DNA of 32,000 bases from Trichodesmium erythraeum IMS101 (lineage in GTDB: Bacteria; Cyanobacteriota; Cyanobacteriia; Cyanobacteriales; Microcoleaceae). The notes below the pieces were generated by a model. That model did no database searches, had not been told where the DNA came from, and saw nothing but the letters and a program-made list of their open reading frames with translations. Where the stretch lies: contig NC_008312.1 of NCBI RefSeq assembly GCF_000014265.1, positions 1-32,000 of the forward strand, given 5' to 3'. This document shows positions 3,824 through 27,636 of the stretch, one piece after another (the first letter of the stretch is position 1; each line of letters begins with the position of its first letter). A program made the translations under genes and the position numbers.

Positions 3824-3854
3824 TGTGGAAAACTTGGGGAAAACTTGTGGAAAA
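3824..3854 (-). promoter_or_regulatory. DnaA-box triplet, 11-bp phased
   Basis: TGTGGAAAA at 3824-3832 and 3846-3854 (reverse complement of TTTTCCACA). TGGGGAAAA, one mismatch, at 3835-3843. Start-to-start spacing is 11 bp. Confidence 0.7.
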
Positions 3855-4232
3855 ATATAAAATCTACAATTTCATCGGCCTTAACCACTTTAAATCAAAT
3901 AGCAAAAGTCTTAATCTAAACCTCAAGGTCTGGGTTTGGTATGTGAAGTATGAATATTGAAAATAGAGGGTATGACAGAAGCCAGAAATGGAAAGCAAAT
4001 TTCAGAGTTTGAGGTACAAATCTGAAGAGTAAAAATCTTGTATTGTGAGAATTTTTCTTACTAAATGTGTACCTAATAACAACCAAAAGTACTGTAAATT
4101 GGCTCTAACTATATTTGAGATATGTGAGAATGTTGCATTTGCCCTAACTACTTTTATATCTTATCAGTTTGGAGTATCTCAAAATTTGAAGTTATGAAAA
4201 ATCTCAAACTTTCTCTTGAAGCAAAAATAAAT

Positions 4233-4316
4233 TTTTCCACAGGTTTTCCACAGGTATTTATTGGTGAAATCATTGATATAGTAAAAAAAAAATTGGAGTT
4301 TTCCACATTTTCCACA
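4233..4316 (+). promoter_or_regulatory. Four perfect DnaA boxes in two pairs
   Basis: TTTTCCACA at 4233-4241 and 4244-4252 (11-bp phasing), and at 4299-4307 and 4308-4316 (directly abutting). Confidence 0.75.
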
Positions 4317-4490: not shown

Positions 4491-7400
4491 GTGCGACTCG
4501 TTGGCTACTAAGACTGAGGAAACAGTTATAAATAGCCATTCCAAGTCAATACATGAGGACAACCTCGACTTGTGGATAACTCTTATGTCCTTAGTGGTGA
4601 AATTCCGCCGCCCTGTTGTTGGGTAGAAAGCATAGGCCACACGGCAGCGAATGAATATCAAAACTGTGAAGCTGGCCTAAATGAGGTCAAAGCTTTAACT
4701 ACCAAATAAGTGAGACCCCTAGCAGAGACTGACAAGTGGACAAACAGGAAGTAATTAAACTCTCGTAATTTGAAACCATTTCAAAGGTAGCTATGGAATG
4801 TTGGACTAAAGTCAGGGGGTCAATGGATAATCCTATTAAGTCAAGATTATCAACAACCATACCGAACCCTCCGGGAGATTTTACCTCACTAAATCAGTCG
4901 TAATAAAGGAGTAAGGGAACGAGGAAACCTCTCTAAGACACCTAAGAATATAGGTCGAAAACTTAGGAAGCCATTCAAGGCAAATCTACGCATAGGGTCG
5001 TAGGTTTTAGGGAGAGTAGGATTGGGTAAGAAGCATATCTATGCAGACGTACCCACTTTTAGACGTAATGTAAGGTAATGATTAGCAATGAATAAGGCTA
5101 AAACGCTAAAAAGAATATTGGGTAATCCAAAACCCTTTTTAAGTGTGGCATGGGGTACAGACTATATATTGTCCCGTGTATGTGTCAATCTTCACTTGAA
5201 GTGGAAAGATATTGACGGGAAACGGGTCTTGAAGAATATGTTTAAGTTGCAAAAGTTAATTTACAAAGCATCCAGTTGTGGTGAAATTCTCAATAGACGT
5301 AGATATCAAAAACTTCTGACCAAAAGTTATTACGCAAGGTTGTACCTGTTAGAGGCCTGAAACAGGATAATCAGGGAAAGAAAACTACTGGTATAGGTGG
5401 TATTAAAAATCTACGATATCAACACTCTGATATTATTATTATAAGGTACATCAAACTTAAAGGTAGTAAATAACAATTAGATGTTGACTGGATCTATTTG
5501 AGTAACAGAATGGGTAAAGATCCGGGTATAACGAAAGAAGTGACAAGAAACAGCAAAAGAATAAATGCACATCTTATGGATTAACCCTCAGAGATACTGT
5601 TTTAAGGTCAGTAGACTACATAAAACTAAGGTCTTAAGGTGGTGACAACACTTAGAAGGATCAACAACTGTTATACCTAGATTGCCACGATACTAAAACT
5701 GCCTCAGATCAGAACACATATTCAAAACTAACAAGGTTACAGGACTTAACTAGTTATTAATTATGGGATATGTAGATTTTAAGGTAGGGATGTACCCTTC
5801 AGTTGGGACGTTTAAGAGGGGAGCCGTGATGAGGTGAAAGTCTCACGTCCGGTTCTGAAGACGAGTTGAATGAGGTAACTCATTTGGCTTAGTTTAACAG
5901 CAGTAACCTTTCTCTAGTTAGTCGTGCAGTTCCTTCTCGACCTAATCACCCAGGTGCGACTCGTTGGCCACTAAACCACAAATGGGTATAAATGGCCGTT
6001 CAAAGTCAATAATATGAGGACAACCTCGACTTGTGAATAACTCTTATGTCCTTGTAGGTGCAATTCCTACCACCCTGTTGTTGGGTTGACAGCATAGGCC
6101 ACACGGTAGAGACTGAACATCAACCCGTGAAGCTGGCTTAAACGGGGTCAAAGCTTTAACTATCAAATAAGTGAGATTTCTAGCAGAGACTGACAAGTGG
6201 ACGAATAGGAAGGTAATTAAACTCTCGTTATTAGGAAAATTCCAAAGATAGCTATGGAATATAGGACGAAAGTTCAGAGGGTCAATGGATAATTCTATCT
6301 GGGTGGAATTATTAACAACCATAACCGTACTCTCCGGGGGAATTTACCCCACTAAATCAGTCGTAACAAAGGTATAAGGGAACGAGGAAACCTCTCTAAG
6401 ACACCTAAGAAGATGACTTAGGAAGCCATTCAAGGTCAATCTATGTAAAAGGACGTAGGTTTTAGGGAGAGTAGGATTGGGTAATAAGCACAATTAGCAG
6501 ACGTACCCACTGTTAGACGTAATGTAAGCTAACAATTAGCAATTAATAAGGCTAAAACACTAATAAGAAAGCTAGGTTAACCTAGACTATTTTTAAGTGT
6601 GGCATGGGATACAGACGATATACTATCTCAAATATCTATAAATCATGCTCTTAAGTTAAAAGAGATAGACTGGAAATGGGCCCTGAAGAATGTATTTAAG
6701 TTGCAATAGTTAATTTACAGAGCATCCAGCTTTGGCAAAATTCGCAATATCATTAAGTATCAAAGATTTATGACTTCTAGTGATTATGCTTTGTTACTAA
6801 CTGTTAGGCGCGTGAGCCAAGATCATTAAGGTAAGAAAGTGGTGACAATATCTAATAAAAACAAATAGTTATTGCACCGGCACTGCCATGATTTGAAAAC
6901 TGCCCAAGAGTAGCAATTATACTTTAAGAATTAGTTAGCTCCCTTGGTGAATTTCAAAGGGTGTACTTATAAAAAGGGACGTTTAGCAGAGGAGCCGTGA
7001 TGAGGTGAAAGTCTCACGTCCGGTTCTGAAGACGAGCAGACTCTATAAAGGATAGCCGGAAATGGGCTTGCTTAGTTTAACTACTAGCAAATGTTTTATT
7101 AACTGCAGATGTTGATTCTCAATGTCTAGAGTTAACAGGTTTTGACTTAGGTTTAGGAATTCGTTCCAGCTTTCCAGCAGTTGTAGAAACCAGTGGAAGT
7201 TTTACTTTACCTGCCAAATTATTTAATGATATTGTTTCTGTGCGACTCGTTGGTTAGTTAAAACTGATGAAACTTCGGTATAACAAGCCTTCCATGGCAT
7301 ATTTTGAAGGAGGTTAAAGATAAGGCTAGTGGAAAACTCTTATGTCCTTGATGGTGAAATTCTATCCGCCTTGTTGTTGGGTTGACAGCATAGGCCACAC

Positions 7401-10400
7401 GGTAGCGACTGAATATCAATCCGTGAAGCTGGTCTAAATGCGGGAAAATACTAGTTGCCAGGAACGATACCGCTAGCAAAGGCTGACAAGTGGACGAACA
7501 GTAAGGTAATTAAACTCTCGTTATATCAAACCATTCCCAAGGCAGCTATGGAATGTAGGACAAAAGTCAGAGGGATAATGGATATAGGGATGGAAACCTT
7601 TATATTAACAACTAGTATGAACCCTCCGGGAGATTTTACCCCACTAAATCAGTCGTAATAAAGGCATAAGGGAACGAGGAAACCTCTCTATGACTCCTAA
7701 GTAAATAGTTGATAACTTAGGAAGCCATTCAAGGTCAATCTACACGAAAGGTTGTAGGTCAAAGAGAGAGTAGGATTGGGTAAAAAGCTTTGATTGCTGA
7801 CGTACCCACTGTTAGACGTAATGTGAAGTAACAACTAGCAATGAATAAGGCTAAAACACTAAAGAGAAATAATGGTAATCCTAATTTATTTTTAAGCGTG
7901 GCATGGGATACGGTCTATAATATGCTTTTCTAATTGAGTATCAAGCCAAAACCAAAATGGAAAGATATCAATTGGAAATGGGTTTTGAAGAATGTATTTA
8001 AGTTGCAAAAGTTAATTTACAGAGCATCCATTAGTGGCAATATCTGCAAGATGCATAAATACAAAAAAATTCTGACTTCTAGTTACTACGCTAGATTGAT
8101 AGCTGTTAGACGCCTGACCTAGGTAGACCCGAGAAAGAAAACTGCCGGGGAATTTGATAGTTCAATGAAAATTGACTTGATTTATCTAAAGTTACACATA
8201 TATAGCGATATTGTAGCAGTATGAGTAATAAGCAAAAACTATGTTAAGAAGTAGCGATTGCTTCTTTACGATTGTGTTTCCTGCTTGTGAAGATAAATTA
8301 CAGGCTGCGGTCAGTGGTATGGGGGTGAAACACGGAAGTTAGCTCCAAAGCTTATGTAAATCCTGAGGGATGTAAGTTTGGGTAAGTTTGATAGAACGGA
8401 ATAAACCTGGATTCGATTTTCGAGGTTTTACCATCAGATAAGGTCAGGTAAAGACAGCAAAATTAGGATTTAAGACTCTGATTAAATAATCTTTTGAGAG
8501 TATCAAAATTCATTATTGAAGATTAGCAGTTTTATGTAACTCACATAAAACTGCACCAGTAGAAGCACTGATAGCTAAACTGGATTAGGTAATCAGAAGA
8601 TAGGCCAACTATTTTTCAGGCGTAGTCAGTAAGAAAATATTCAATAAGTTGGATAATCTCTTAGGTTAAAGACTAGGTCGATGGGCAAGGTCGTTGGCAT
8701 CCAAATAAGTCAGTCAGATGGATAAAACAGAAGTATTTCTCCAAAGTAGGGATGCGGATTTTGTAAATTGACCTTTAGATCGATAGACCTAATAGAGATA
8801 GATCAAAAAATATCAAGGTCTAGAGTTGGTGAGAACACCTACAAGAACAAACAACTGTTGCACTGATGTTGCACTGATATTGCCAGGATACTAAAACTGC
8901 TTGAGATCACAAAACATCTCCAAATCTCAAGTTACATGACTTAATATCTTGAGACAATGAGCAGGGATGTACCCTTGAATTGGGACGTTTAGGAGAGGAG
9001 CCGTGTGAGGTGAAAGTCTCATGCACGGTTCTGAAGACGAGCCGGGTAGGGTAACTTACCAGGCTTAGTTTAACAGACTACCAGAAGGTAACATTACCAT
9101 TGATGATGATGCAGGGGAAGCGATCGCTACTCTTACTTCTACATCTGGTCGTTATCAAGTTAGAGGTATGGGAGGAGAAGAATATCCAGAATTACCAAAT
9201 GTGGAAGCTGGGGAAGTTATCAATTTACAATCGGAAGCTTTAATTGATGGCTTGAGAGGAACTTTATTTGCTACAAGTCCTGATGAAACCAAACAAGTAT
9301 TGACGGGAGTACATTTAAAAGTACAAACAGATGGTTTGGAGTTTGTAGCAACAGATGGTCATAGGTTGGCTATTGTCGTGCGACTCGTTGGCTAGTAAAA
9401 ACCTCCCTTAAGCAGGTATAGCAAGCCTTCCACTACAAGTTTTAGAGGAGATTAAACATAAAGCCAGTGGAAAACTCTTATGTCCTTGGTGGTGAAATTC
9501 CATCCGCCTTGTTGTTGGGTTGACAGCATAGGCCACACGGTAGCGACTGAACATCAATCTGTGAAGCTGGTCTAAATGAAGTCAAAGTTTCAATTAGCAA
9601 ATAACTGAGACTTTTAGCAGAGGCTAACAAGTGGACGAACAGGAAGGTAATCAAACTCTCGTTACCAACACCTATTTCAAAGTTGTATAGGTAATATAGA
9701 ACTAAAGTCAGAGGGTCGATGGATATAGACATGGCAATATCTATATCAACAACCATATAGAATTCTCCGGGAGAGTTTACCCCACTAAATTAGTCGTAAT
9801 AAAGGCATAAGGGAACGAGGAAACCTTTTTAAGACACCTAAGAATATAGGTCGAGAACTTAGGAAGCCATTCAAGGTCAATCTACACACTTAGTCGTAGG
9901 TCTTAGAGAGAGTAGGATTGGGTAAAAAGCAATATTAGCAGACGTACCCACTGTTAGACGTAATGTAAGGTAACAATTAGCGATGAACAAAGCTAAAACA
10001 CTAAAAATAAATTTAGGGTCACCTAAACTATTTTTAAGTGTGGCATGGGATACAGACAATATACTGTTTTAAGTCAGTGTTGCTCGAATTTTGTTGTGGA
10101 AAAACATAGATTGGAAAAGGGTTCTGAGGAATGTGTTTAAGTTGCAAAAGTTAATTTACAGAGCATCCAGCCGTGGCAACAAGGTTTTTGATGGGTTGAC
10201 AATATTGTCGGCACACTCAGTAGGGAATGTTGGCACACTCAGCAGGGGTGTACCCTTGAATTGGGACGTTTAGGAGAGGAGCCGTGTGAGGTGAAAGTCT
10301 CACGCACGGTTTTGAAGACGAGTTGGGTAGGGTAATTTACCTGGCTTAGTTTAACCAGACAGAAAGTGTAATGCAGGAGGGTGAGGAAGAAATAGAGGAA

Positions 10401-10973
10401 GTTACAGAAATAGAAGAGTTTGAAGTAACAATTCCGGCGAAAGCTTTAAGAGAGGTTGAACGTATGATTAGTATGGGTAAGTCTGGTTCTTCTGTGACAT
10501 TAAAGTTTGATGAAAATCAGGTTATTTTTGAGTTGGGAAAGCAGCGTTTAACTAGCCGAAAATTAGAAGGCCAATATCCTGCTTACCAACAATTGTTACC
10601 TAATCAGTTTACTAATCAAATTAATGTAGATCGAAAAAAATTTTTAGGAGCTGTGGAAAGAATTGCTGTTTTAGCTGACCAAAAGAATAATATCTTGAAG
10701 TGTACTATTGATAGTGTTAATCAAGAAATTTCTTTATCTGTAGATGCTCAAGATGTGGGAAGTGGTCGAGAATCTATGGCAGCACAAATCTCTAGTGATG
10801 AGCCAGAAGAAATTGCTTTTAATGTGAAATATTTGATTGAAGGATTAAAGGCTATTCCCTCAGCTTCTGAAATTTCTATTCAGTTAAATACTGCTACAAC
10901 TCCAGTAGTTTTAAATCCTTTGGGAGGATTTCAAATGACTTATTTAATTATGCCTGTCCAGTTAAGATCTTAG
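4461..10973 (+). CDS. dnaN: DNA polymerase III beta sliding clamp, split gene: join(4461..4490,5899..5953,7082..7239,9075..9377,10356..10973)
   Basis: The five exons total 1164 nt (387 aa plus stop) and stay in frame across every junction. The spliced protein reads MKLTCTQSDL|SSNLSLVSRAVPSRPNHP|VLANVLLTAD...NDIVS|RLPEGNITID...ATDGHRLAIV|QTESVMQEGEEE...LIMPVQLRS, a typical cyanobacterial DnaN. Every break is flanked by a GTGCGAC... intron 5' end and a ...GCTTAGTTTAAC intron 3' end. Confidence 0.93.
4491..5898 (+). mobile_element. Group II intron 1 in dnaN (1408 nt), ORF-degenerate
   Basis: - 5' end GTGCGACTCGTTGG.
- Domain V GAGCCGTGATGAGGTGAAAGTCTCACGTCCGGTTC at 5821-5855, with the AGC triad.
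- 3' end GCTTAGTTTAAC.
- Candidate EBS1 TAAGTC (4837-4842) is complementary to the last 6 nt of exon 1 (GACTTA).
- Domain IV holds a decayed intron-encoded protein: the RT N-terminus is in track ORF 5088..5360 (WKDIDGKRVLKNMFKLQKLIYKAS) and an HNH-like remnant LDCHDTKTA lies at 5677-5703, with many stops between them. Confidence 0.9.
5899..5953 (+). CDS. dnaN: dnaN exon 2 (55 nt)
   Basis: Encodes SSNLSLVSRAVPSRPNHP plus the first base of a Val codon, which is completed by exon 3. Confidence 0.9.
5954..7081 (+). mobile_element. Group II intron 2 in dnaN (1128 nt), ORF-degenerate
   Basis: - 5' end GTGCGACTCGTTGG.
- Domain V at 6992-7026.
- 3' end GCTTAGTTTAAC.
- Candidate EBS1 CTGGGT (6299-6304) is complementary to the exon 2 end ACCCAG.
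- The IEP remnant starts at 6542 with ATG mutated to ATT. It has an in-frame TAG in the LQ*LIY segment and an HNH remnant HCHDLKTA at 6881-6904. Confidence 0.9.
7082..7239 (+). CDS. dnaN: dnaN exon 3 (158 nt)
   Basis: Encodes (V)LANVLLTADVDSQCLELTGFDLGLGIRSSFPAVVETSGSFTLPAKLFNDIVS. Confidence 0.9.
7240..9074 (+). mobile_element. Group II intron 3 in dnaN (1835 nt), longest, with the most complete but dead IEP remnant
   Basis: - 5' end GTGCGACTCGTTGG.
- Domain V at 8998-9031.
- 3' end GCTTAGTTTAAC.
- Candidate EBS1 GGAAAC (7592-7597) pairs with the exon 3 end GTTTCT with one G-U pair.
- IEP remnants: ATG at 7841, RT N-terminus in track ORF 7934..8122, an RT-domain-7-like KPGFDFRGFTIR at 8403-8438, maturase-X-like text (ANYFSGVVSKKIFNKLDNLL), and an HNH remnant CQDTKTA at 8881-8901. 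All are interrupted by stops. Confidence 0.9.
9075..9377 (+). CDS. dnaN: dnaN exon 4 (101 codons)
   Basis: Encodes RLPEGNITIDDDAGEAIATLTSTSGRYQVRGMGGEEYPELP...FVATDGHRLAIV. Track ORF 9168..9395 is its 3' part and runs 5 codons into intron 4. Confidence 0.92.
9378..10355 (+). mobile_element. Group II intron 4 in dnaN (978 nt), most reduced
   Basis: - 5' end GTGCGACTCGTTGG.
- Domain V at 10279-10312, where the closing base is T instead of C, giving a G-U pair.
- 3' end GCTTAGTTTAAC.
- Candidate EBS1 GGCAAT (9733-9738) pairs with the exon 4 end ATTGTC with one G-U pair.
- Only about 60 codons of the IEP N-terminus remain (ATG at 9983; track ORF 10091..10273 reads WKNIDWKRVLRNVFKLQKLIYRASSRG). 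Confidence 0.9.
10356..10973 (+). CDS. dnaN: dnaN exon 5 (205 codons + stop)
   Basis: QTESV followed by track ORF 10371..10973. This is the C-terminal clamp domain (...LEGQYPAYQQLLP...IAFNVKYLIEGLKAI...). Confidence 0.93.
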   Translation, partial: QTESVMQEGEEEIEEVTEIEEFEVTIPAKALREVERMISMGKSGSSVTLKFDENQVIFELGKQRLTSRKLEGQYPAYQQLLPNQFTNQINVDRKKFLGAVERIAVLADQKNNILKCTIDSVNQEISLSVDAQDVGSGRESMAAQISSDEPEEIAFNVKYLIEGLKAIPSASEISIQLNTATTPVVLNPLGGFQMTYLIMPVQLRS

Positions 10974-12894: not shown

Positions 12895-15800
12895 ATGGCA
12901 AATGAATTAAGAGAAGGTGACAAAACTCCTGTTGACTATAGTAGTTTATTAAAACAGATTTTAAATGAATTACCAACAATGAATCCATTTAAAGTATCTA
13001 GTAATAAGAAAATTTTAGAAATAAATATTGATGATATAGCTGCTTGTATTGCTAAGACAAAAGTTGAAAATCCTATCAGTAATACTATATCTGTTCGTTC
13101 TGCCACAGTAAATTTTGCTAGTGAAAAAAGTTTTTCGGAAAAAATTCAAGAAATAAAAGGTTGTCTAGAAACTCATTTCAGTTCGGCTTTACAAGGAGAA
13201 AATTTAGTTTATTTTATTGAAGGTTTAACTACTAATTTAGAATCTTTTCAGGGACAAGCAAATAAGTTAGGTTTGTCTTATCCTTTTAATGAAGAATATA
13301 AAGGACTACAAACAAAAGAATTAATTTTAGATTCTAATAAAAATGGCAGTGATTCTATACTGAGGTTTGCTAAACTAACAATTACAGTAGAGAATACTAA
13401 AAAGTTTATATCTCAGCTAGAAACAGGAATTAAAAATCATATATCTGATTCTTTTGAAACTGATAATCAAGGAGAAATGGAAGGTGCTTTAGATATTTTA
13501 AATAGTCAGATAAACGAAGAATCATCAAATTTTAATTTATTGCAAAAACTGGTGGATCAAGAAACTCTAGGAAAACTGAAAAGAGAAGCAATTATTACCT
13601 ATTTAAAATATATTGAGCAAAATGTTGACAGCAAATATAAAAATACTAAAGGTTTTATTTATCTACAGGATTTAATTCGGCGACTAAAATTAATAGAAGA
13701 ATATCTAGACGAGCAAACTGATGATTTTGAAGTTTACTACGCTGGAGTAACTGTTAATTATAAAGATGTTTTTGCTCGTGGGGAAGCCTTTGATGCTCTC
13801 CCAATTATTCCTATTATTGAAGGCAATTTAGGGGAAAGTAGAGATAAAGAAGTAGGAAAAGTTCAGTTTACATTAGGTTTAAAACTTAAGTTGAATGGCA
13901 AGGTACAAAAAGATAGAGGTAAAACTTCTTTTGAGTATAATTTAGATATTATTAACCCGGAGAATTCTGAGCATAAAGCAAAACTAGCTGATCCGGATAT
14001 TCAAAGTCGAGAAAGTTTTGCTAAGAAGGTATTAATTAGAGTGTTTTTATACTATTTTATATTTGCCTGTGATCCTCCTTCATTAATGAATGATGAACTT
14101 CTTTATAACCCTAGGCTTAAGTTCGAGCAGGTTTTAATTGATTTAAAAAGTAGTAAGCATGATGATGAAAAAAGGAAAATTTTCCGGGGCATAGTCAAAG
14201 GTTTTAGTGAATATCGTGTTCAAGAAAAAGTTAATAGTCTATGTCAATTTTTAATCAATTTTATCAACAAAAAGAAAAGGTTGCCAGTATATCATGAAAA
14301 TCAGGTAATTAGTATTAGTAGAGAAATCCTAAATAAGGACTTAGATAGTATTTCTATAGGAGATTTTTTTCAGGAAGATTGGAGAGAAGGAAAGAAAATT
14401 CTTAAATATATTTTCATTGATAAGCCTGGGGTAAATTCTTATACTCTATGTCAAATACCAGTTATTATCAAAATAGAAGATATTCGATATTTTCAAGGAG
14501 ATAGTAATCCAAAAGAATTCAAGTTTGAATATGACATTCAAGGAATGAAAACATTACCTATGTTTTGGATACCTAATACTAACCCTTGTTTAGATAATTA
14601 TAAAGCTTATTTTGAGAAAGAATACAAACACATATTATTTTATTATGATAATAAACGCTTAAATCAAGATAGACAAAACCAAGAACATTTCAATTCTACA
14701 CAAATATTTCTTTATCGTTTTACTTGGATATTATTGTCTTATCTTTGTTTATATATTCTTCTTGAGGAATGTAGTGAAGAGACGAAGGAATTATTATTTA
14801 TCCCTATGGTTAGACTACATGAGGGAACGCCGGCAAATCCATTTCATACTGAAAAATTTTTAGCTGATCTTTCCAAATTATTATGTCATATATTCAACCA
14901 AAAATATCTATGTAATTCTCAAGGGTTCCGGGTAGAAATGAATAAAAGACCTAAAAATTTTCAGATTAGAAATGGCTTAAACTCTCTATATTCTGTATTA
15001 TCTAAAAAGTTTACCTTAACAGATACTTCTAAATTTTTAAACCTGGAAAAATTAGCAATTATTATTGTATCAAGTCGAGAAAGTGATGCCAAAAAAAATA
15101 ATAAAAATTCTAATGATAGGATCATAACTTTAATAGGAGAAGTTATAGGTATTGAAAAACTCGAAGATGGCAGTGTAAAAATTCAACCATTAATAACTTT
15201 TGATAATAATTATTATCTCAGAAAGATGTACGAAAAGCCACCGATTTTAAATGAAACTGTAAAAGACCTTTATGTTCAGGGATACCAAAATTTTTTATAT
15301 GTTGCTCAAGCAACTTACACTAGTACTTTACATATTACTCAACAAGAACAAGATGAGAAACTATATTTTATGTCGCCTACTATTATTAAAGATATGAAGC
15401 AAGGTCAGAAAAATATTAAAATATATCCAGTATTTTATGATAAATATTATGTACATCCTTTTAAAAGTTTGGATAGCCATTCTTTTTATATCCAAGACAC
15501 TAAACAGTTAATGAATATTTCTGAAGATAGTAGTCAAGAAGCGGTTGTATTTTTCAATCTGTTTAATGGTATTTTAGTGGGAAATAACGAACGATTTTAT
15601 AATGGGGTGATTTCATATTCGACTTTGTTAGGAAAATTTTATCCTGGAGTTATGGATGATGCTGATATTCGAGAAGCTTTAGTTTTAGACTCTCAGCTTA
15701 AAAATGACATTTTACAATATCTGACGTTTTTCCACTTTTCACGATTTGAAAGACAAACCAAAGTTAGTTTAAAGTTAGACCCATACGAAAATATTATTGG

Positions 15801-15912
15801 TGATAAATCAGTAGGTGCTTTATCTATATTTCCTCACCTTACAGAAAACATAAATTTTAATGCATTAGCTTTTTTAATAGAGGTTAATAAAGTAGTAGAT
15901 GTATATTTTTAA
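12895..15912 (+). CDS. Large hypothetical protein (1005 aa), upstream partner of the helicase-like ORF
   Basis: Uninterrupted 3018-nt ORF with no competing frame. It is rich in Asn, Lys, Ile and Tyr. I can recognise no P-loop or nuclease, PLD, HEPN, TIR or SIR2-type motif. There are two hydrophobic stretches (VLIRVFLYYFIFAC and IFLYRFTWILLSYLCLYILL). Its last 22 codons recur in the downstream repeat mosaic. Confidence 0.85.
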   Translation: MANELREGDKTPVDYSSLLKQILNELPTMNPFKVSSNKKILEINIDDIAACIAKTKVENPISNTISVRSATVNFASEKSFSEKIQEIKGCLETHFSSALQGENLVYFIEGLTTNLESFQGQANKLGLSYPFNEEYKGLQTKELILDSNKNGSDSILRFAKLTITVENTKKFISQLETGIKNHISDSFETDNQGEMEGALDILNSQINEESSNFNLLQKLVDQETLGKLKREAIITYLKYIEQNVDSKYKNTKGFIYLQDLIRRLKLIEEYLDEQTDDFEVYYAGVTVNYKDVFARGEAFDALPIIPIIEGNLGESRDKEVGKVQFTLGLKLKLNGKVQKDRGKTSFEYNLDIINPENSEHKAKLADPDIQSRESFAKKVLIRVFLYYFIFACDPPSLMNDELLYNPRLKFEQVLIDLKSSKHDDEKRKIFRGIVKGFSEYRVQEKVNSLCQFLINFINKKKRLPVYHENQVISISREILNKDLDSISIGDFFQEDWREGKKILKYIFIDKPGVNSYTLCQIPVIIKIEDIRYFQGDSNPKEFKFEYDIQGMKTLPMFWIPNTNPCLDNYKAYFEKEYKHILFYYDNKRLNQDRQNQEHFNSTQIFLYRFTWILLSYLCLYILLEECSEETKELLFIPMVRLHEGTPANPFHTEKFLADLSKLLCHIFNQKYLCNSQGFRVEMNKRPKNFQIRNGLNSLYSVLSKKFTLTDTSKFLNLEKLAIIIVSSRESDAKKNNKNSNDRIITLIGEVIGIEKLEDGSVKIQPLITFDNNYYLRKMYEKPPILNETVKDLYVQGYQNFLYVAQATYTSTLHITQQEQDEKLYFMSPTIIKDMKQGQKNIKIYPVFYDKYYVHPFKSLDSHSFYIQDTKQLMNISEDSSQEAVVFFNLFNGILVGNNERFYNGVISYSTLLGKFYPGVMDDADIREALVLDSQLKNDILQYLTFFHFSRFERQTKVSLKLDPYENIIGDKSVGALSIFPHLTENINFNALAFLIEVNKVVDVYF

Positions 15913-15924
15913 AGGAAGAAAAAA

Positions 15925-16205
15925 ATGAAGATGACATATCAGTTAGGATTTTGATTGGTGGTAGGTTTTAATATTGCCATTCTTGTAAATATTAAATTCC
16001 ACGAATTTACAAATAATTTTGGTAATTGATATCTTCAATATTTGCATTTTTTAAAATTATATAATTATTATGCAATGGGTGAATAAAAATATTCAATTAT
16101 TACTATTTCAATTTTCAATATTCTCGAAATCCACGGTAAATACAGCCTGTTAATACTCAAGCTTTGTATAGTTATTTCAGTATATTTACTCGACAAACAT
16201 AAAGA
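15925..16205 (+). pseudogene. Decayed copy A of the 5' end of the 1248-aa ORF
   Basis: The ATG lies 12 nt after the gene-1 stop. The frame reads MKMTYQLGF*LVVGFNIAILVNIKFHEFTNNFGN*YLQYLHFLKL...NILEIHGKYSLLILK. It is colinear with the true N-terminus MKITDNLGFLFEVGFNIGILADIQHQKYQNNFGDLYVRDLQQLKL...KNLEIWSRYFILK and contains several stops. Confidence 0.85.
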
Positions 16206-16594
16206 CTGAATTACATACTAATAAAACTATTGAATGGGCTATATTTTATTTGTAATTAGTTTCTAGCATAGCAACTTGTGTTGGTATGTTTGTATAAGAT
16301 AAAGTGTCACTCGTGCTGCACGAATGAAAGTAATGTTAATAGTAGCAAAAATTTCTAGTATATTTAAAGATAATAGTAATATGTAAATATCTGAGCCCTA
16401 TTGCTATAGTATGAAATTTTGCCTATAAAGTCAGTAAAAAAATCAAGCAACATAAAAATATTATCAATTATGAGTAGTTAGTAATTCGTCTGTATTAATC
16501 ACACATAAAAGATACATTTTAATTTAATAAATTAGTATTTTAAATCCGGGTGAATAAAATCTTTTATTCGATACCTTGTTTATATTCCCTCATA

Positions 16595-16770
16595 TTACAT
16601 AAAAGATAAATTGTCATAAATTAGTATTTTTGATAGAGTTTACTAAAATTCTAAATATAGATTTTTAAAGAGAAGCAACAATTTACATAAAAGATAAATT
16701 GTCATAAATTGGTATTTTTGATAGAGTTTACTAAAATTCTAGATATAGATTTTTAAAGGGAAGCAAAAAT
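16595..16770 (+). repeat. 88-bp tandem direct repeat x2, derived from the 3' tail of the 1005-aa ORF
   Basis: Units 16595-16682 and 16683-16770 differ at 4 positions. Both resemble gene-1 tail, stop and RBS region (...ATAGAGTTTACTAAAATTCTAGATATAGATTTTTAAAGGGAAG compared with ...ATAGAGGTTAATAAAGTAGTAGATGTATATTTTTAAAGGAAG). A truncated third copy lies at 16503-16560. Confidence 0.85.
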
Positions 16771-17044
16771 TAATATTACAGACAAGTTAGAATTTTGATT
16801 TTAGGTAGGGTTTAATGTTCTTATTATTGTAGATATTCAATCCCAAAAGTTTACAAATAATTTTGTTGATGTATATCTTTAATATTTGCAGTTATTAAAA
16901 TTACATAATATAATGAAATGGATAAATAAAAATTGATTAAATTATTAATATTAAAAGTTAAAATATTATCGAAATATTGAGTAAATACAGCCTATTATTA
17001 CTCAATTTTTGTACAGTTATTTGAGTATATTTGCTCGACAAATA
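16769..17044 (+). pseudogene. Decayed copy B of the 5' end of the 1248-aa ORF
   Basis: ATG AAG is replaced by ATT AAT. The frame reads ITDKLEF*F*VGFNVLIIVDIQSQKFTNNFVDVYL*YLQLLKL and is colinear with the true N-terminus. Confidence 0.85.
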
Positions 17045-17113
17045 GAAAATATCAATTTTAATAAATTAGCATTTTTGATAAAGGTTACTAAAACCGCAGA
17101 TTTAGATTTTTAA
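17045..17113 (+). repeat. Stop-free copy of the last 22 codons + stop of the 1005-aa ORF, directly upstream of the 1248-aa ORF
   Basis: Reads ENINFNKLAFLIKVTKTADLDF-TAA, compared with the authentic ENINFNALAFLIEVNKVVDVYF-TAA at 15844-15912 (15 of 22 residues identical). The 12-nt spacing to the following ATG is the same in both. Confidence 0.85.
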
Positions 17114-17125
17114 AAAGAAACAATA

Positions 17126-20100
17126 ATGAAGATTACAGACAACTTAGGATTTTTATTTGAAGTAGGATTTAATATTGGTATTCTTGCGGATATTCAACAT
17201 CAGAAGTATCAAAATAATTTTGGGGATTTGTATGTTCGGGATTTGCAGCAATTAAAATTGCCGAGGATGGTTAAACGAATGAGTCAAAATCATAGCATTA
17301 TTGACCCTGAAAGTATTAAAAATCTGGAAATATGGAGTCGATATTTTATATTAAAAGGATTTCTAGGGGGATTAATTTTTTTCCGCGAGTATATTAAGTC
17401 AACTAAATGGAATTTAGAACCCAAAAAACTAAAAATTTTGTATTACCAATGTTGCTTTCATGGAGATAATAGTTTAGGTACTAATAATAAAGATAAATTA
17501 TTAGGAATTGAGGAGTTATTATCTCAATTTTTATCTGTTGATGACTTGAATACTAATTTAAATAGATACGTTAATCAATATTTGGGAAAGAAAGGAGAAT
17601 TTTTACAAGCAGATACATTAATTTTGTTGGGTGATGACCAACAGTTGAGAATTATCTGTGTAGATATGTCTATATTTTCAGTCGCTTCCGAAAAAGATTT
17701 GGTACCACTGAATGATAATAAGTTAAACAATTTACGTAAAATTTTGATGACGGATATTAAACATATTCATTCTAAAAGTGTCTTTTCTAAATTGCGGATA
17801 GATACAGGTAATACTAAGGATTTTGATTTTGTGTTTTCCTCAGATTTTAAAAGCTTTTTTACTGCTTTTAAGCGGAAGGATAAGGAAACTACTAAGTTAA
17901 TTCAAGCAGGTGCTTATGCTGAAAGTTTTTACAATTTTCTGCTAAAGGAAACACAAATAATTACAGATAAAAAATCTGTTCTGTTTAATATTGTGGGATA
18001 TAGCGATCGCAACATTAGTACTTTATGTTTACGCCCAGAAAATCTCAATATTTTAACTACTTGTTCCGAAATATATAAGAAGGAAGATAAAAACAAAGAA
18101 ACTAAAGTCGCTCGTCGCAAAGTATTAGATTTGATTAAGAACAGAGCTGTTTTTAGTTTTATTAATGGCAAAGCTCTTACTGAAAATTTAAAGACAAAAA
18201 AGTTAAACTTTTCAGGGGATGGTATTGCTCGGGTTATTCATGAAGAAAAGTTGAATGATTTTGTTAATTCTATAGATGTTATCTCTGATAAATTAGCAGC
18301 AAAATTGGGTTTAAAGTTAGGGTTAAACTTAAGAGATGCTCATGCTGAATTAATTGAAAAAGCCCTAATTAGTGATAATACTTTTGTCTTTTTGACAGGT
18401 AACCCAGGTATAGGTAAAACAACAGCTATTGCTAATTTTTTAAAGTCTCATTTAGAGGAAGGTTTTCTCTTTTTTTATATTAGCCCTCGGATTCAAGTTA
18501 ATCTCGATCTAATCCATAAGTTTAAATCTGAAAATGCTCAAGATCAGGAGCTTTTTGACGACAGATTATTTTGTATCAACACCAATTCAATTATAATTCA
18601 AGAAAATGATAACTATTCCACGGTTAGATATTATTCTAATCAACGTCAAGATGATTTTACTTCTAAAAATGTCCGGTTTATTAATTACAATTCACAAGCT
18701 GAACCTAGAAAGCAACGTCAAAGAAATTTTCATAGAATTACCGTAGATAAAATTGAAAATAGAAAAAAAATAACTGCTGGAGTTCTTGATAGTGTCTGTA
18801 AGGGAATATATGCTATTATTAATGACAAAATATCTAATAATATTGTTGCTACGGTTTCAACTCAATCTTTAAAAATTACTCCGAATGGTAGAGATACTAT
18901 TGAACATCTTAAGACAATATTCAAAAGTACTTATGACAGAAAAAGAGGTGTAAATCCTGATAAAATGTACGAAATTTCTCAGAGGATAAAGCACTTATTT
19001 ATAATGATTGATGAAATTACTGGTGATGATAGTGGAGTTCATTTTTTAAAGGGAATTAATAAGTTTTTGGGGCAGTATCAATTAACTAATTCAGAATATG
19101 GTTTTAATACTAAAGTTATTGTAGCTGATGCTTCTATTGTGGAACAAGAAGTTATTCAACAGCACTTATCACAAGAGTCCCCAGAACCAGATAAAATTTA
19201 TTTTAGAGCAGCGAAAAGTCAAGCAGAAGCACTTTCAGTACAGGATTTTCAATTTAAAAATAAACGAGCTGTAACTATTAATGCTAATTCTTACCCAGCT
19301 AGTAGTTTAAATATTACTTATAAAGTCTTCATTCAATCCATTAACTTTAATCAATATGACTGGAAATTTAAAGAAAAAAACCAGTTGACGAAAGAAGTCG
19401 ATTTAGAAATTTTATCAGATATAAAATACTTCTTAGAAAATTATAGTTCTAGTCAGTTATTAGTCTATATTCAAAACAAAAAACGTTTAAAGAGTTTGAT
19501 AAAAAATATTAAGGAGTCACATAAAAATTTTGATGAATATACAGACTATCTGGAAATACATGCTAGTTTATATGATGAAAAAAGAAAAAAAATAGATAAG
19601 TATAAGCAAGATGTAAAAATCGTGTTTATGACATCTTCAGCAAGTCGAGGTTTATCTTTCCCTAAAGCTAAAAAAATCTTAGTTGAAATACCTCGTTTCC
19701 AGATCGAAAAAAATCTTATGGAAGTAATTCAAGTAATTTATAGAGCTAGAGGTCAGTATCAAGAAAATGGAAAAAAAATAACTTTAGATGATCAAGAAAA
19801 AGAAATAATATTTTATTTTAGTGATTCCGCAATTTATTATCCTAAAGATAATGATACTTCCCTGGAAAATTACGATGAAGAGAGAACCCTTTCTTTGGAA
19901 GAAAGTACAATGAATTTATTAGATATGTTATTAATTCTCAAACTTTCAATAATGACTAGGATAGTCGGTGCTGGTAATTTGGGAAGTAAAAAATTTCTGA
20001 TGGTTCCTATTGGTGGAAAATCTATTTCAACAGCAGGAAATAGCTTTTCAGAAAAGATGACTAACCTAATTCGAGAGTTAAAAAATGAACATAACCGACA

Positions 20101-25440: not shown

Positions 25441-27636
25441 TTAGCTCATCCATTCCAGAATAGCTTCTTCTTTTTTATTGGTATGACGCTCTGGAGTTTC
25501 ACGAGTGAACTGCATATGAATAGAGCGGTTTTGTTCACCATCAACTGCTACTGCCATAATTGGGTAATCAATCAAACCATCAGGGAAAGCCATCTGGAAG
25601 CGGAATGTACCATCAGGGTTCAGTTTAATGGGTCGTCCACCGATGGTAACAGTAGCATCAGGTTCAGTTGCACCGTGGATAATAAGTTCAGCATCAGCAA
25701 CTAACCAGAACTTGCGGGGGCGAATTGGTGGGATGGAGCCAGCAATACCTGACATATTCATACCCATACCCGAAGCAGTTAAACCTACTCCTGACATATT
25801 CATACCCATACCCGAAGCAGTTAAACCTACTCCTGACATATTCATACCCATACCCGAAGCAGTTAAACCTACTCCTGACATATTCATACCCATACCCGAA
25901 GCAGTTAAACCTACTCCTGACATATTCATACCCATACCCGAAGCAGTTAAACCTACTCCTGACATATTCATACCCATACCCGAAGCAGTTAAACCTACTC
26001 CTGACATATTCATACCCATACCCGAAGCAGTTAAACCTACTCCTGACATATTCATACCCATACCCGAAGCAGTTAAACCTACTCCTGACATATTCATACC
26101 CATACCCGAAGCAGTTAAACCTACTCCTGACATATTCATACCCATACCCGAAGCAGTTAAACCTACTCCTGACATATTCATACCCATACCCGAAGCAGTT
26201 AAACCTACTCCTGACATATTCATACCTACACCCGAAGCAGTTAAACCTACTCCTGACATATTCATACCCATACCCGAAGCAGTTAAACCTACTCCTGACA
26301 TATTCATACCCATACCCGAAGCAGTTAAACCTACTCCTGAAGCATTTAAGCCTACACCCGAAGCAGTTAAACCTACTCCTGAAGCATTTAAGCCTACACC
26401 CGAAGCAGTTAAACCTACTCCTGAAGCATTTAAGCCTACACCCGAAGCAGTTAAACCTACTCCTGAAGCATTTAAGCCTACACCCGAAGCAGTTAAACCT
26501 ACTCCTGAAGCATTTAAGCCTACACCCGAAGCAGTTAAACCTACTCCTGAAGCATTTAAGCCTACACCCGAAGCAGTTAAACCTACTCCTGAAGCATTTA
26601 AGCCTACACCCGAAGCAGTTAAACCTACACCCGAAGCAGTTAAACCTACTCCTGAAGCAGTTAAACCTACTCCTGAAGCATTTAAGCCTACTCCTGACAT
26701 AGTTTGACCAACCCCTGACATCATTTGATTGCCACAAGAAACATTGCTACCAGATGCCCACATCCCTAGACCTGATACCATAGCATAAGAGCTTAGTGTT
26801 TCTTCAATCATCTGGCCTGAACCTGGAACCATTTGAACAGAACCAAACATAGAACCAGAAACCCGTTTATCCTCAGCCTCAGCTATGCCAAACATTCCTT
26901 GATAAATATCATCATGATTATCATGAAAAGTAATTTGACGACTAGCAGGAAAAAGTTCCATAAAGGTTTTTCCACGCAAATCTTCATCCCAACTAACTGT
27001 GATGAATTGCTCGTCAATCCAATCTGAAGGATAAACTGGGGGAATATTTACTTCCTCAGAACGAGACAAAACTAACCAACGACCATCAGCACACCGATAA
27101 CCTATTTCCACAGTATAGTTGCGATCGCTTACCGGAATAGGTATGTACCATTCACGAGCTAATTCATCACAAGGATATTCCTGAATGCTATGAGGACTTT
27201 GAGAGTCTAAGTTAATATCCGTGACATCATATGTACGGAGAGCTAACTGTTGCCCTCCTTGACTACGTAGCTCTTCTTTAAGTTCATTCGAAATATCCCA
27301 GTAAGCGTATGCCCACTCTGGGTCCCTTGGCATTAGTACTATTTTACTTTTAGCATACCCGTTAGGCAAGTCAGTTAAACCTTCATCAACTGATGAAAAA
27401 AAATCATCAATATTATTTTCTTCGCCTGATTCAAACTTTTTTGCTTCCGCTCTTTCTTGTACTTCTAATTTTGAAAGTGGAGCGGATGAAAGATTATTCA
27501 TACCTTGAGCCTCTATAACTGCTGCCAAAAGTTGTGCTTTACGCATTCTGCTGTAACGAGAGATACCTAGCTCACTAGCAACTTTGCGTAGTTGCCTTAA
27601 AGTCATCTCTTCTAAGGGTGGACGTTCTTGAACCAT
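25441..27636 (-). CDS. Rho_N-domain + DUF4912-like protein with a long internal Ser/Gly heptad-repeat region
   Basis: 731 aa. N-terminal Rho_N/SAP-like helix-hairpin (LEEMTLRQLRKVASELGISRYSRMRKAQLLAAVIEAQ), then a DUF4912-like block (IVLMPRDPEWAYAYWDIS...REWYIPIPVSDRNYTVEIGYR). A central low-complexity array is followed by a conserved C-terminal beta-rich segment. Family names are from memory. Confidence 0.85.
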   Translation of the reverse strand: MVQERPPLEEMTLRQLRKVASELGISRYSRMRKAQLLAAVIEAQGMNNLSSAPLSKLEVQERAEAKKFESGEENNIDDFFSSVDEGLTDLPNGYAKSKIVLMPRDPEWAYAYWDISNELKEELRSQGGQQLALRTYDVTDINLDSQSPHSIQEYPCDELAREWYIPIPVSDRNYTVEIGYRCADGRWLVLSRSEEVNIPPVYPSDWIDEQFITVSWDEDLRGKTFMELFPASRQITFHDNHDDIYQGMFGIAEAEDKRVSGSMFGSVQMVPGSGQMIEETLSSYAMVSGLGMWASGSNVSCGNQMMSGVGQTMSGVGLNASGVGLTASGVGLTASGVGLTASGVGLNASGVGLTASGVGLNASGVGLTASGVGLNASGVGLTASGVGLNASGVGLTASGVGLNASGVGLTASGVGLNASGVGLTASGVGLNASGVGLTASGMGMNMSGVGLTASGMGMNMSGVGLTASGVGMNMSGVGLTASGMGMNMSGVGLTASGMGMNMSGVGLTASGMGMNMSGVGLTASGMGMNMSGVGLTASGMGMNMSGVGLTASGMGMNMSGVGLTASGMGMNMSGVGLTASGMGMNMSGVGLTASGMGMNMSGVGLTASGMGMNMSGVGLTASGMGMNMSGIAGSIPPIRPRKFWLVADAELIIHGATEPDATVTIGGRPIKLNPDGTFRFQMAFPDGLIDYPIMAVAVDGEQNRSIHMQFTRETPERHTNKKEEAILEWMS
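25748..26697 (-). repeat. In-frame tandem repeat array, 21-bp base unit organised as two 42-bp families
   Basis: - Family 1: CCTGACATATTCATACCCATACCCGAAGCAGTTAAACCTACT, 14 copies at 25748-26335 (coding NMSGVGLTASGMGM). Thirteen are identical and one is a variant, at about 26210-26251.
- Family 2: CCTGAAGCATTTAAGCCTACACCCGAAGCAGTTAAACCTACT, 7 copies at 26336-26629 (coding SGVGLTASGVGLNA).
- 21-bp half-units then continue to about 26697. Confidence 0.95.

Follow-up and report, generated by a model that had tools for sequence, protein, structure and literature searches.

Decayed duplicates of a gene boundary as the probable origin of the Tery_0011/Tery_0012 spacer in Trichodesmium erythraeum

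The first 32 kb of the Trichodesmium erythraeum IMS101 chromosome (positions 1-32000, the stretch analyzed here and called the window) hold two long genes on the + strand, Tery_0011 (gene 1; 12895-15912), which encodes a conserved hypothetical protein of 1005 amino acids (aa), and Tery_0012 (gene 2; 17126-20872), which encodes a helicase-like protein of 1248 aa; the coordinates of both open reading frames (ORFs) match Table S1 of PMC12090762 exactly. The spacer between them measures 1213 nucleotides (nt), and about 84% of it can be assigned to sequence derived from the boundary of the two genes themselves, namely two dead Tery_0012 starts and four dead Tery_0011 ends. We consider it likely, with a probability of roughly 0.8, that the spacer is the decayed remnant of repeated tandem duplication across this boundary and that it most likely has no dedicated function. 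A preliminary description of the window had proposed that the spacer was built from copies of the junction; this is true of the assignable 84%, while about 200 nt (16215-16413; 16% of the spacer) show no such relation.

The left part of the repeated unit corresponds to the final ~90 nt of Tery_0011 and the right part to the first 270-285 nt of Tery_0012. All boundary copies are direct, lie on the same strand and are colinear, each being taken from one contiguous segment that runs from the gene 1 end through the gap into the gene 2 start. From left to right the order is gene 1, gap, gene 2 head (copy A), joint, the unassigned ~200 nt, a long gene 1 tail, two units that we call J2 and J3, a last tail with its gap, and gene 2. 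Gene 1 ends in ENINFNALAFLIEVNKVVDVYF-TAA (15844-15912) and is followed by the native 12-nt stop-to-ATG gap (15913-15924, + strand, read from the sequence), which carries a Shine-Dalgarno-like AAGGAAG and now opens into copy A (15925-16205, + strand). By alignment and translation copy A is a dead copy of the first ~95 codons of gene 2; its ATG at 15925 is kept and its first stop is codon 10. Behind it lies a novel joint (16181-16222, + strand) at which the gene 2 head runs out and a gene 1 tail begins, only the first part of that tail being preserved; this joint aligns with the one between J3 and the boundary of gene 2 that we call J4 (17021-17060). The sequence in which the right end of the unit meets its left end, GAGTATATTTGCTCGAC / CAGTATATTTACTCGAC, is present both at 17023 and at 16181, and a reading of the joint reveals a TATATT microhomology between gene 2 near +265/+270 and gene 1 near -85. 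The unassigned segment that follows, defined by alignment and profile search, contains a G+C-rich hairpin (16307-16327) and matches no other part of gene 1 or gene 2; positions 16223-16266 within it are common to the window and the spacer of another lineage, the metagenome-assembled genome (MAG) MAG_R02.

The remainder of the spacer consists of tail and head modules. A decayed long copy of the gene 1 tail (16414-16574, + strand; roughly -158 to -12) is 70% identical to the first module of a repeat unit in Okeania sp. SIO2C9 (L021 6036-6192; score 79, shuffle maximum 32) and includes a truncated tail copy at 16503-16560 that is the weakest piece when taken alone (nhmmer E = 0.006 for ~16500-16561). 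J2 (16576-16683, + strand; nhmmer E = 6e-20) comprises a gene 1 tail and the 12-nt gap, is preceded by the derived joint ATTCGATACCTT, and supplies the first unit (16595-16682) of an 88-nt tandem. J3 (16684-17044, + strand; alignment, nhmmer and translation) consists of the second unit (16683-16770) fused to copy B (16769-17044, + strand), a dead gene 2 head whose translation reveals several stops and whose ATG has become ATT. Tandem Repeats Finder (TRF), which also detected J2, scores 16595-16771 as 2.0 copies with 95% matches, the two units differing by 4 mismatches. The current 5′ context of gene 2 is a proximal dead copy of the gene 1 end (its last 22 codons and TAA) with the 12-nt gap behind it (17045-17125, + strand). 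On translation, 17045-17113 gives ENINFNKLAFLIKVTKTADLDF and a terminal stop with no internal stop, 15 of the 22 residues being those of the true gene 1 tail, and the 12-nt spacing recurs at 17114-17125, as it does in the tight junction of Trichodesmium MAG_R03 (L022) described below. Across 17045-17125 the window is 88% identical to MAG_R02 in a single alignment that continues into gene 2. The real gene 1 tail bears the derived residues VVDVYF, which occur in no copy, and the copies retain the ancestral (I/L)DF ending.

The gene 1 tail, the 12-nt gap, copies A and B, the 15/22 tail copy, the 88-nt tandem and the truncated copy had all been pointed out beforehand, and each was reproduced by translation, TRF or alignment. 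The accompanying proposal, that a unit of about 365 bp was amplified at least three times, needs revision: amplification spanning the junction and decay of the inner copies stand, and the single burst gives way to a nested compound array, in which a long tail is followed by a tail with the intergenic stretch and then by a tail with a head.

The similarities greatly exceed those expected from base composition. Local alignment scores were compared with the best of 200 shuffles: J1, the boundary of gene 1 with copy A (15839-16203), aligns with J3 (16683-17048) at 79% identity over 368 columns (score 334, best shuffle 40), J1 (from 15825) with J4 (from 17026) at 75% over 237 (score 165, best shuffle 35), and J3 (16689-16982) with J4 (17046-17338) at 73% over 296 (score 190, best shuffle 43). 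An nhmmer profile of the unit finds five copies on the + strand (15822-16214, 16500-16561, 16578-16682, 16676-17048 and 17041-17420), with E values from 1e-106 to 6e-3, and no further copy anywhere in the 32-kb window; a dispersed mobile repeat of the MITE type would have copies at unrelated loci, and the search for these covered the 32 kb. Six independent assemblies with identical proteins also read through the whole spacer, at 100% identity, and partial contigs from other runs agree with it exactly as far as each extends. That the repeat structure might be a low-complexity match or an assembly artefact was worth considering in a region of 78% A+T in which many short-read contigs break; such breaks are, however, expected because the spacer is a repeat. 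With junction-copy scores 4 to 8 times the best shuffle, identical independent assemblies and homologous arrays in other species, we reject both chance AT-rich similarity and misassembly, and the likelihood left to this explanation is practically negligible.

The array differs among orthologous loci, whose orthology follows from dnaN lying upstream of the pair. The stop codon of gene 1 and the ATG of gene 2 are separated by just 12 nt in MAG_R03 (TAA, 12 nt, ATG), by ~490 nt with one pseudo-copy in a metagenome contig (L147), and by 720 and 712 nt in MAG_R02 (L020) and a Tara contig (L101), where a dead head split by a ~110-nt insertion is followed by a middle part and one dead tail. In two St16 MAGs (L099, L100), which share 98% protein identity with the window, the spacer is 1119 nt long and has one 88-nt unit in place of two, together with 5-nt and 1-nt indels. 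Okeania sp. SIO2C9 has the longest complete spacer (2183 nt), made of one head copy and then a 662-nt compound unit present ~3 times, the last copy entering the real gene 2; in Okeania SIO3I5 (L056) and in L102/L103, arrays of roughly 110-nt tail units extend past the contig end. The array is thus still changing in length: orthologous loci range from 12 to more than 2100 nt, and near-identical strains differ by one 88-nt unit. These data support one reading offered in the preliminary description, that the array is a recombination substrate able to collapse or expand (12, about 490, 712-720, 1119, 1213 and 2183 nt). Length varies between lineages only and is constant among the six assemblies with identical proteins, although short-read assemblies are a weak test of this; with the same reservation, their identical 1213-nt spacers led us to reject a contingency locus or phase-variable repeat.

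The arrays of different genera share their internal structure. The 662-nt unit of Okeania SIO2C9 reads as gene 1 -158 to -12, then gene 1 -91 to gene 2 +35, then gene 1 -96 to gene 2 +252, and the last three modules of the spacer have the same order and the same internal joints; 16416-16902 is colinear with this unit at 67% identity (score 211, shuffle maximum 42). In addition, the tail copies of T. erythraeum, L147 and Okeania SIO2C9 are preceded by the derived sequence ATTCGATAC(C/T)TT, where the real genes have CAGT(A/G)GGTGCTT. This shared joint argues for a single origin of the array, and the internal joints and colinear compound unit common to T. erythraeum and Okeania imply that the array predates the split of Trichodesmium and Okeania.

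Comparison of 59 homologous cyanobacterial loci supports tight succession of the two genes as what would be the older state, since 18 of them have 30 nt or less between the genes, or an overlap. Together with the MAG_R03 junction, this agrees with the stop/12 nt/ATG coupling that had been suggested as ancestral. Fourfold-site identities in gene 2 (0.88, 0.79-0.80 and 0.68-0.72) order the lineages as ((T. erythraeum, MAG_R02), MAG_R03), Okeania SIO2C9. MAG_R03 is therefore nested among lineages that share the array, and its tight junction is most simply a secondary and precise collapse by recombination between the real tail and the proximal tail; it may also be a collapse in the assembly.

Outside the orthologous clade, long spacers contain no detectable pseudo-copies, bar weak hints in L030, L043 and L049. 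L043 (Floridaenema) and L049 (a Phormidium MAG) each repeat the final ~30 nt of their gene 1 homologue at 89-93% identity, 75 nt past its stop (spacer 75-104), which may represent an independent small junction duplication in distant relatives. Two other Okeania genomes, belonging to a clade of ~57% identity, carry an unrelated 126-nt tandem unit at the same intergenic position (L023 4369-7418, 24.3 copies; L093 9111-9773, 5.3 copies; 87-89% matches) that has no similarity to the flanking gene ends. The ~110-nt insertion inside the dead gene 2 head of the MAG_R02 lineage (L020 ~9112-9223, same in L101) is higher in G+C and may be a small mobile element.

The order of events can be estimated on the assumption of a neutral clock. 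Divergence from the real head amounts to 33-38% in the head copies, which are 20% apart among themselves; it is 4.5% between the two 88-nt units, and at fourfold sites in gene 2 it is 12% to MAG_R02 and 32% to Okeania. Set against these values, the first duplication would be as old as, or older than, the Okeania split, and the duplication separating copies A and B would predate the MAG_R02 split, in which case MAG_R02 must have lost a unit. The 88-nt tandem would be recent.

The copies have decayed in the manner of unconstrained sequence. The differences that separate the head copies from the real head affect all three codon positions alike (35/27/42 for copy A, p = 0.2; p = 0.2-0.5 overall), and G and C have been lost preferentially, 64% of G or C positions having changed vs 20-29% of A or T positions; the G+C content is 22% in the spacer and about 28% in the genes. 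Relative to St16, the spacer has diverged by 2.2% and the fourfold sites of the flanking genes by 0.8-1.4%. The spacer therefore evolves no slower than synonymous sites. Searches for functional elements gave negative results throughout: Rfam has no match at E <= 1 within 15700-17300, folds of the spacer are no more stable than those of shuffles (z-scores -1.5 to +0.6), promoter-like sites in it number 17 against 15.7 +/- 3.7 expected by chance, no spacer ORF exceeds 42 aa, and no terminator is predicted on the + strand, the sole terminator-like hairpin being on the - strand (16327-16307). A structured RNA such as an Rfam family member, leader or riboswitch was rejected on the lack of a covariance-model match and of an unusually stable fold.

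Based on these results we propose the following history. Ancestrally, the genes would have stood in tight succession, with about 12 nt between the stop and the ATG. Judging from the anatomy of the spacer, an illegitimate join of gene 2 near +270 to gene 1 near -85, at the TATATT microhomology, would have duplicated the boundary segment and left a truncated gene 2 head behind gene 1 and a truncated gene 1 tail ahead of gene 2. Once direct repeats were in place, unequal homologous recombination and slippage could have added, nested and removed units, and the inner fragments, incapable of giving a functional protein, would have decayed under AT-biased mutation. The spacer would then persist because the lineage tolerates non-coding DNA. 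Among the meanings offered in the preliminary description, neutral slippage scars are accordingly the best supported. The main effect of the spacer, we conclude, is that translational coupling, if there was any, has ended. Read-through probably still provides the transcription of gene 2, whose native ribosome-binding context is kept by the proximal tail copy; an internal promoter may also serve.

Some observations weigh against this account. Substitutions relative to St16 are patchy: both 17024-17125 and 16299-16447, the latter with the G+C-rich hairpin, lack them altogether. For some 200 nt of the spacer no origin is detectable, and a small RNA or an internal promoter may be present in it. 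Bacteria usually lose direct repeats fast, and because this array outlasted 32% fourfold divergence it could be maintained by selection. Finally, two gene 2 head copies of Okeania SIO2C9 (L021 5786-6007 and 6448-6669) are intact ORFs of 73 codons, both preceded by a Shine-Dalgarno-like sequence of their own, and their ratio of non-synonymous to synonymous differences per site (pN/pS) is 0.10 when they are compared with each other and about 0.2 when the real gene is the reference; the 14 differences between the two include 10 synonymous ones (p = 4e-5). However, when the changes are polarized with outgroups, much of this low ratio traces to the real gene, which has changed under constraint, and to gene conversion that affected the copies in their 5′ part. 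For this reason we do not count selection on these ORFs as shown, and their low pN/pS may reflect gene conversion rather than selection.

Several explanations would instead give the array a role. It could be maintained as a regulator of gene 2, its tail units providing a promoter or leader, transcription tunable by copy number, or a deliberate translational uncoupling. Consistent with this, gene 2 is expressed per kb at 1.37 times the level of gene 1 (21.4 and 15.6 counts per million per kb, respectively) and the two correlate loosely (r = 0.43, n = 7 samples); in every lineage it is the tail module that has been amplified most, the array is long-lived, and 17024-17125 is free of substitutions relative to St16. 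The likeness of the tail copies, however, needs no regulation, since they derive from protein-constrained coding sequence, and the chance frequency of promoter-like matches, the absence of a structured-RNA signal, a substitution rate at least that of synonymous sites, and the intact spacerless genes of MAG_R03 and many relatives all argue against it. We regard such regulation as unlikely. The same negative searches speak against the leader RNA, decoy RNA or promoter that had been suggested for the spacer, and a functional uncoupling of the genes, also suggested, does not agree with the expression data, in which the two genes reach similar levels and gene 2 is no lower than gene 1 per kb, or with the lack of a predicted + strand terminator. 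It is also quite unlikely, in our estimate, that the array is a long-lived, selectively maintained, length-variable element of a conserved two-gene cyanobacterial module, made up of a possibly Argonaute-like protein of 1000 aa and a P-loop/helicase protein; such an element might set helicase expression or coupling by copy number and, in lineages such as Okeania SIO2C9, might furnish N-terminal decoy peptides or a conversion donor.

Alternatively, the copies could be scars of allele replacement, in which gene 1 and the gene 2 start of a diverged strain entered through homology on one side and an illegitimate join on the other, so that resident fragments stayed in place. The Okeania head copies do differ from the real gene mainly synonymously, as if they had diverged while functional, and some states of copy c1 match real genes of other species. 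Nevertheless, nested head-to-tail units that have identical joints and occur ~3 times bear the mark of unequal crossing-over rather than of one import; the same joints are found across species, the differences in T. erythraeum have no codon-position bias, and the low Okeania ratio has largely the other sources given above, which makes this a very unlikely origin. Highly improbable, too, is a role as silent cassettes in the manner of pilS or vls, from which gene conversion would alter the C-terminus of gene 1 or the N-terminus of gene 2, or as small decoy peptides for a fast-evolving conflict system. Such a role would suit the position of the copies beside expressed genes, the signs of conversion between copies and real gene in Okeania, the intact ORFs there, the high ratio of non-synonymous to synonymous change in the pair, and a weak, model-based lead towards an Argonaute-like fold for gene 1. 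It is at odds with the T. erythraeum copies, all of which are stop-ridden and evenly decayed, with the absence of VVDVYF from every copy, with a stock of only two to four copies of little diversity, and with a spacer that is identical in six spanning assemblies and every partial contig reaching into it. Decay after repeated boundary duplication thus remains the reading that we prefer; a tandem duplication across two gene ends, with later unequal crossing-over among the repeats, necessarily leads to a structure of this kind.

Related arrangements are known from other systems. In animal mitochondria, tandem duplication followed by random loss creates spacers: a boundary segment is duplicated, redundant copies decay, and the spacers still align with their neighbours. 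The present locus appears analogous in that a boundary-spanning tandem duplication would have decayed into a spacer; in contrast, the mitochondrial process duplicates whole genes and rearranges their order by random loss, whereas here gene ends only are repeated, no gene is redundant and the order is unchanged. In bacterial tandem amplification, an illegitimate join at microhomology is followed by RecA-type unequal crossing-over that expands or collapses the array, and the copy-number differences between strains described above fit unequal crossing-over. Classical amplifications, however, comprise entire genes, are favored for the dosage that they bring and are lost again in a matter of generations, while the segments here are about 90-660 bp long, confer no dosage benefit and have lasted across species.

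The nearest parallel lies in the same genome, where an array of more than 6 kb adjoining Tery_0080 has seven units, each with a partial duplicate of the Tery_0080 3′ end, and yields the most abundant non-coding RNA; it was ascribed by its authors to duplication events (Pfreundt et al. 2014, PMC4143802). Both are intergenic tandem units carrying a partial duplicate of the adjacent gene. The Tery_0080 units (736-973 bp, >96% identical, transcribed on the opposite strand) consist mostly of sequence without a match in T. erythraeum or other GenBank genomes; the junction array, in contrast, consists almost entirely of the two gene ends and has decayed much further (73-95% identity), and no transcript of it is known. 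Given this array and the mitochondrial spacers, the earlier remark that no such system had been described does not hold. Template and variable repeats of a diversity-generating retroelement have also been reported in T. erythraeum (PMC4143802), and a non-coding copy of a gene 3′ end near that gene resembles such an element. We rejected this candidate: the differences are not concentrated at adenines (no matter which copy serves as the template, the share that differs is 15-29% for A positions and 38-70% for C or G positions), the junction copies also span the start of the next gene, and no reverse transcriptase gene is evident beside the pair among the window ORFs, which are only partly annotated. 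The junction array is therefore a known kind of feature and not a new kind of genetic system. What it adds to the known cases is resolution: a nested array with dated layers, joints shared across genera, and expanded, shrunken and collapsed sister states.

Both genes have hundreds of full-length homologues, chiefly in filamentous cyanobacteria (184 for gene 1, mostly from these organisms), and the pair is usually adjacent. Tery_0012 contains a P-loop NTPase region and a Helicase_C domain, both generic Pfam assignments, and Tery_0011 has no match in Pfam, NCBIfam, PADLOC or PHROGs; searches for a role of the pair in PADLOC, NCBIfam, PHROGs and PDB sequences returned no useful match, and a literature search by locus tag found nothing on it. 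An AlphaFold2 model of Tery_0011 has a mean predicted local distance difference test score (pLDDT) of 63 and a predicted template modelling score (pTM) of 0.45. The top 12 Foldseek matches of this model in the PDB are all Argonaute or PIWI proteins (SPARTA, SPARDA, RsAgo, MILI/HILI, QDE-2), with E values of 9e-4 to 2e-2 yet low TM-scores (0.08-0.19), and neither Pfam nor PDB sequence searches lend support to this likeness. The model hints that Tery_0011 and the adjoining P-loop/helicase gene might form an undescribed Argonaute-like conflict module conserved in filamentous cyanobacteria. Between IMS101 and a St16 MAG (L099), codon positions 1+2 of both genes have diverged by 0.6-0.9% and fourfold sites by 0.8-1.4%, on small counts; positions 1+2 being nearly as diverged as fourfold sites, selection on both genes would be weak or diversifying.

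Elsewhere in the window, Tery_0001 (dnaA, 27-1397), Tery_0008 (dnaN, 10371-10973) and Tery_0013 (arsA, 21246-22433) are listed in Table S1 of PMC12090762 with the same coordinates. Between dnaA and the dnaN region, 3824-4316 contains seven perfect TTTTCCACA DnaA boxes and one with a single mismatch, and the number of DnaA box matches in the whole window exceeds that in 100 of 100 shuffles. From this clustering, 3824-4316 is probably oriC, and a location of oriC inside the spacer was rejected because the boxes cluster there instead. The dnaN region (~4500-10355) holds four group II intron copies, with Rfam domain V/VI matches at 5819-5898, 6989-7081, 8995-9074 and 10276-10355; the four intron 3′ ends precede the last dnaN exon, and the intron bodies form repeat families D2-D12. 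The four dnaN (Tery_0008) introns listed in PMC4143802 agree with these matches. Within Tery_0018 (- strand), which encodes a Rho_N/DUF4912 protein, a long run of 21/42-nt tandem repeats occupies 25580-26782, many of them 99-100% identical; as they lie within coding sequence, part of the peptide must be repetitive.

Non-coding DNA makes up about 40% of the T. erythraeum genome, for reasons that are an open question (PMC4143802, PMC4649490). At the Tery_0011/Tery_0012 locus, the sequence lets one follow, down to single bases, how 1.2 kb of such DNA arose through boundary duplication, nested re-duplication and AT-biased decay. Our results support duplication and decay as a source of intergenic DNA in T. 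erythraeum besides mobile elements, and they make the locus a ready test case for the rates at which repeats are gained and lost in a highly polyploid cyanobacterium.

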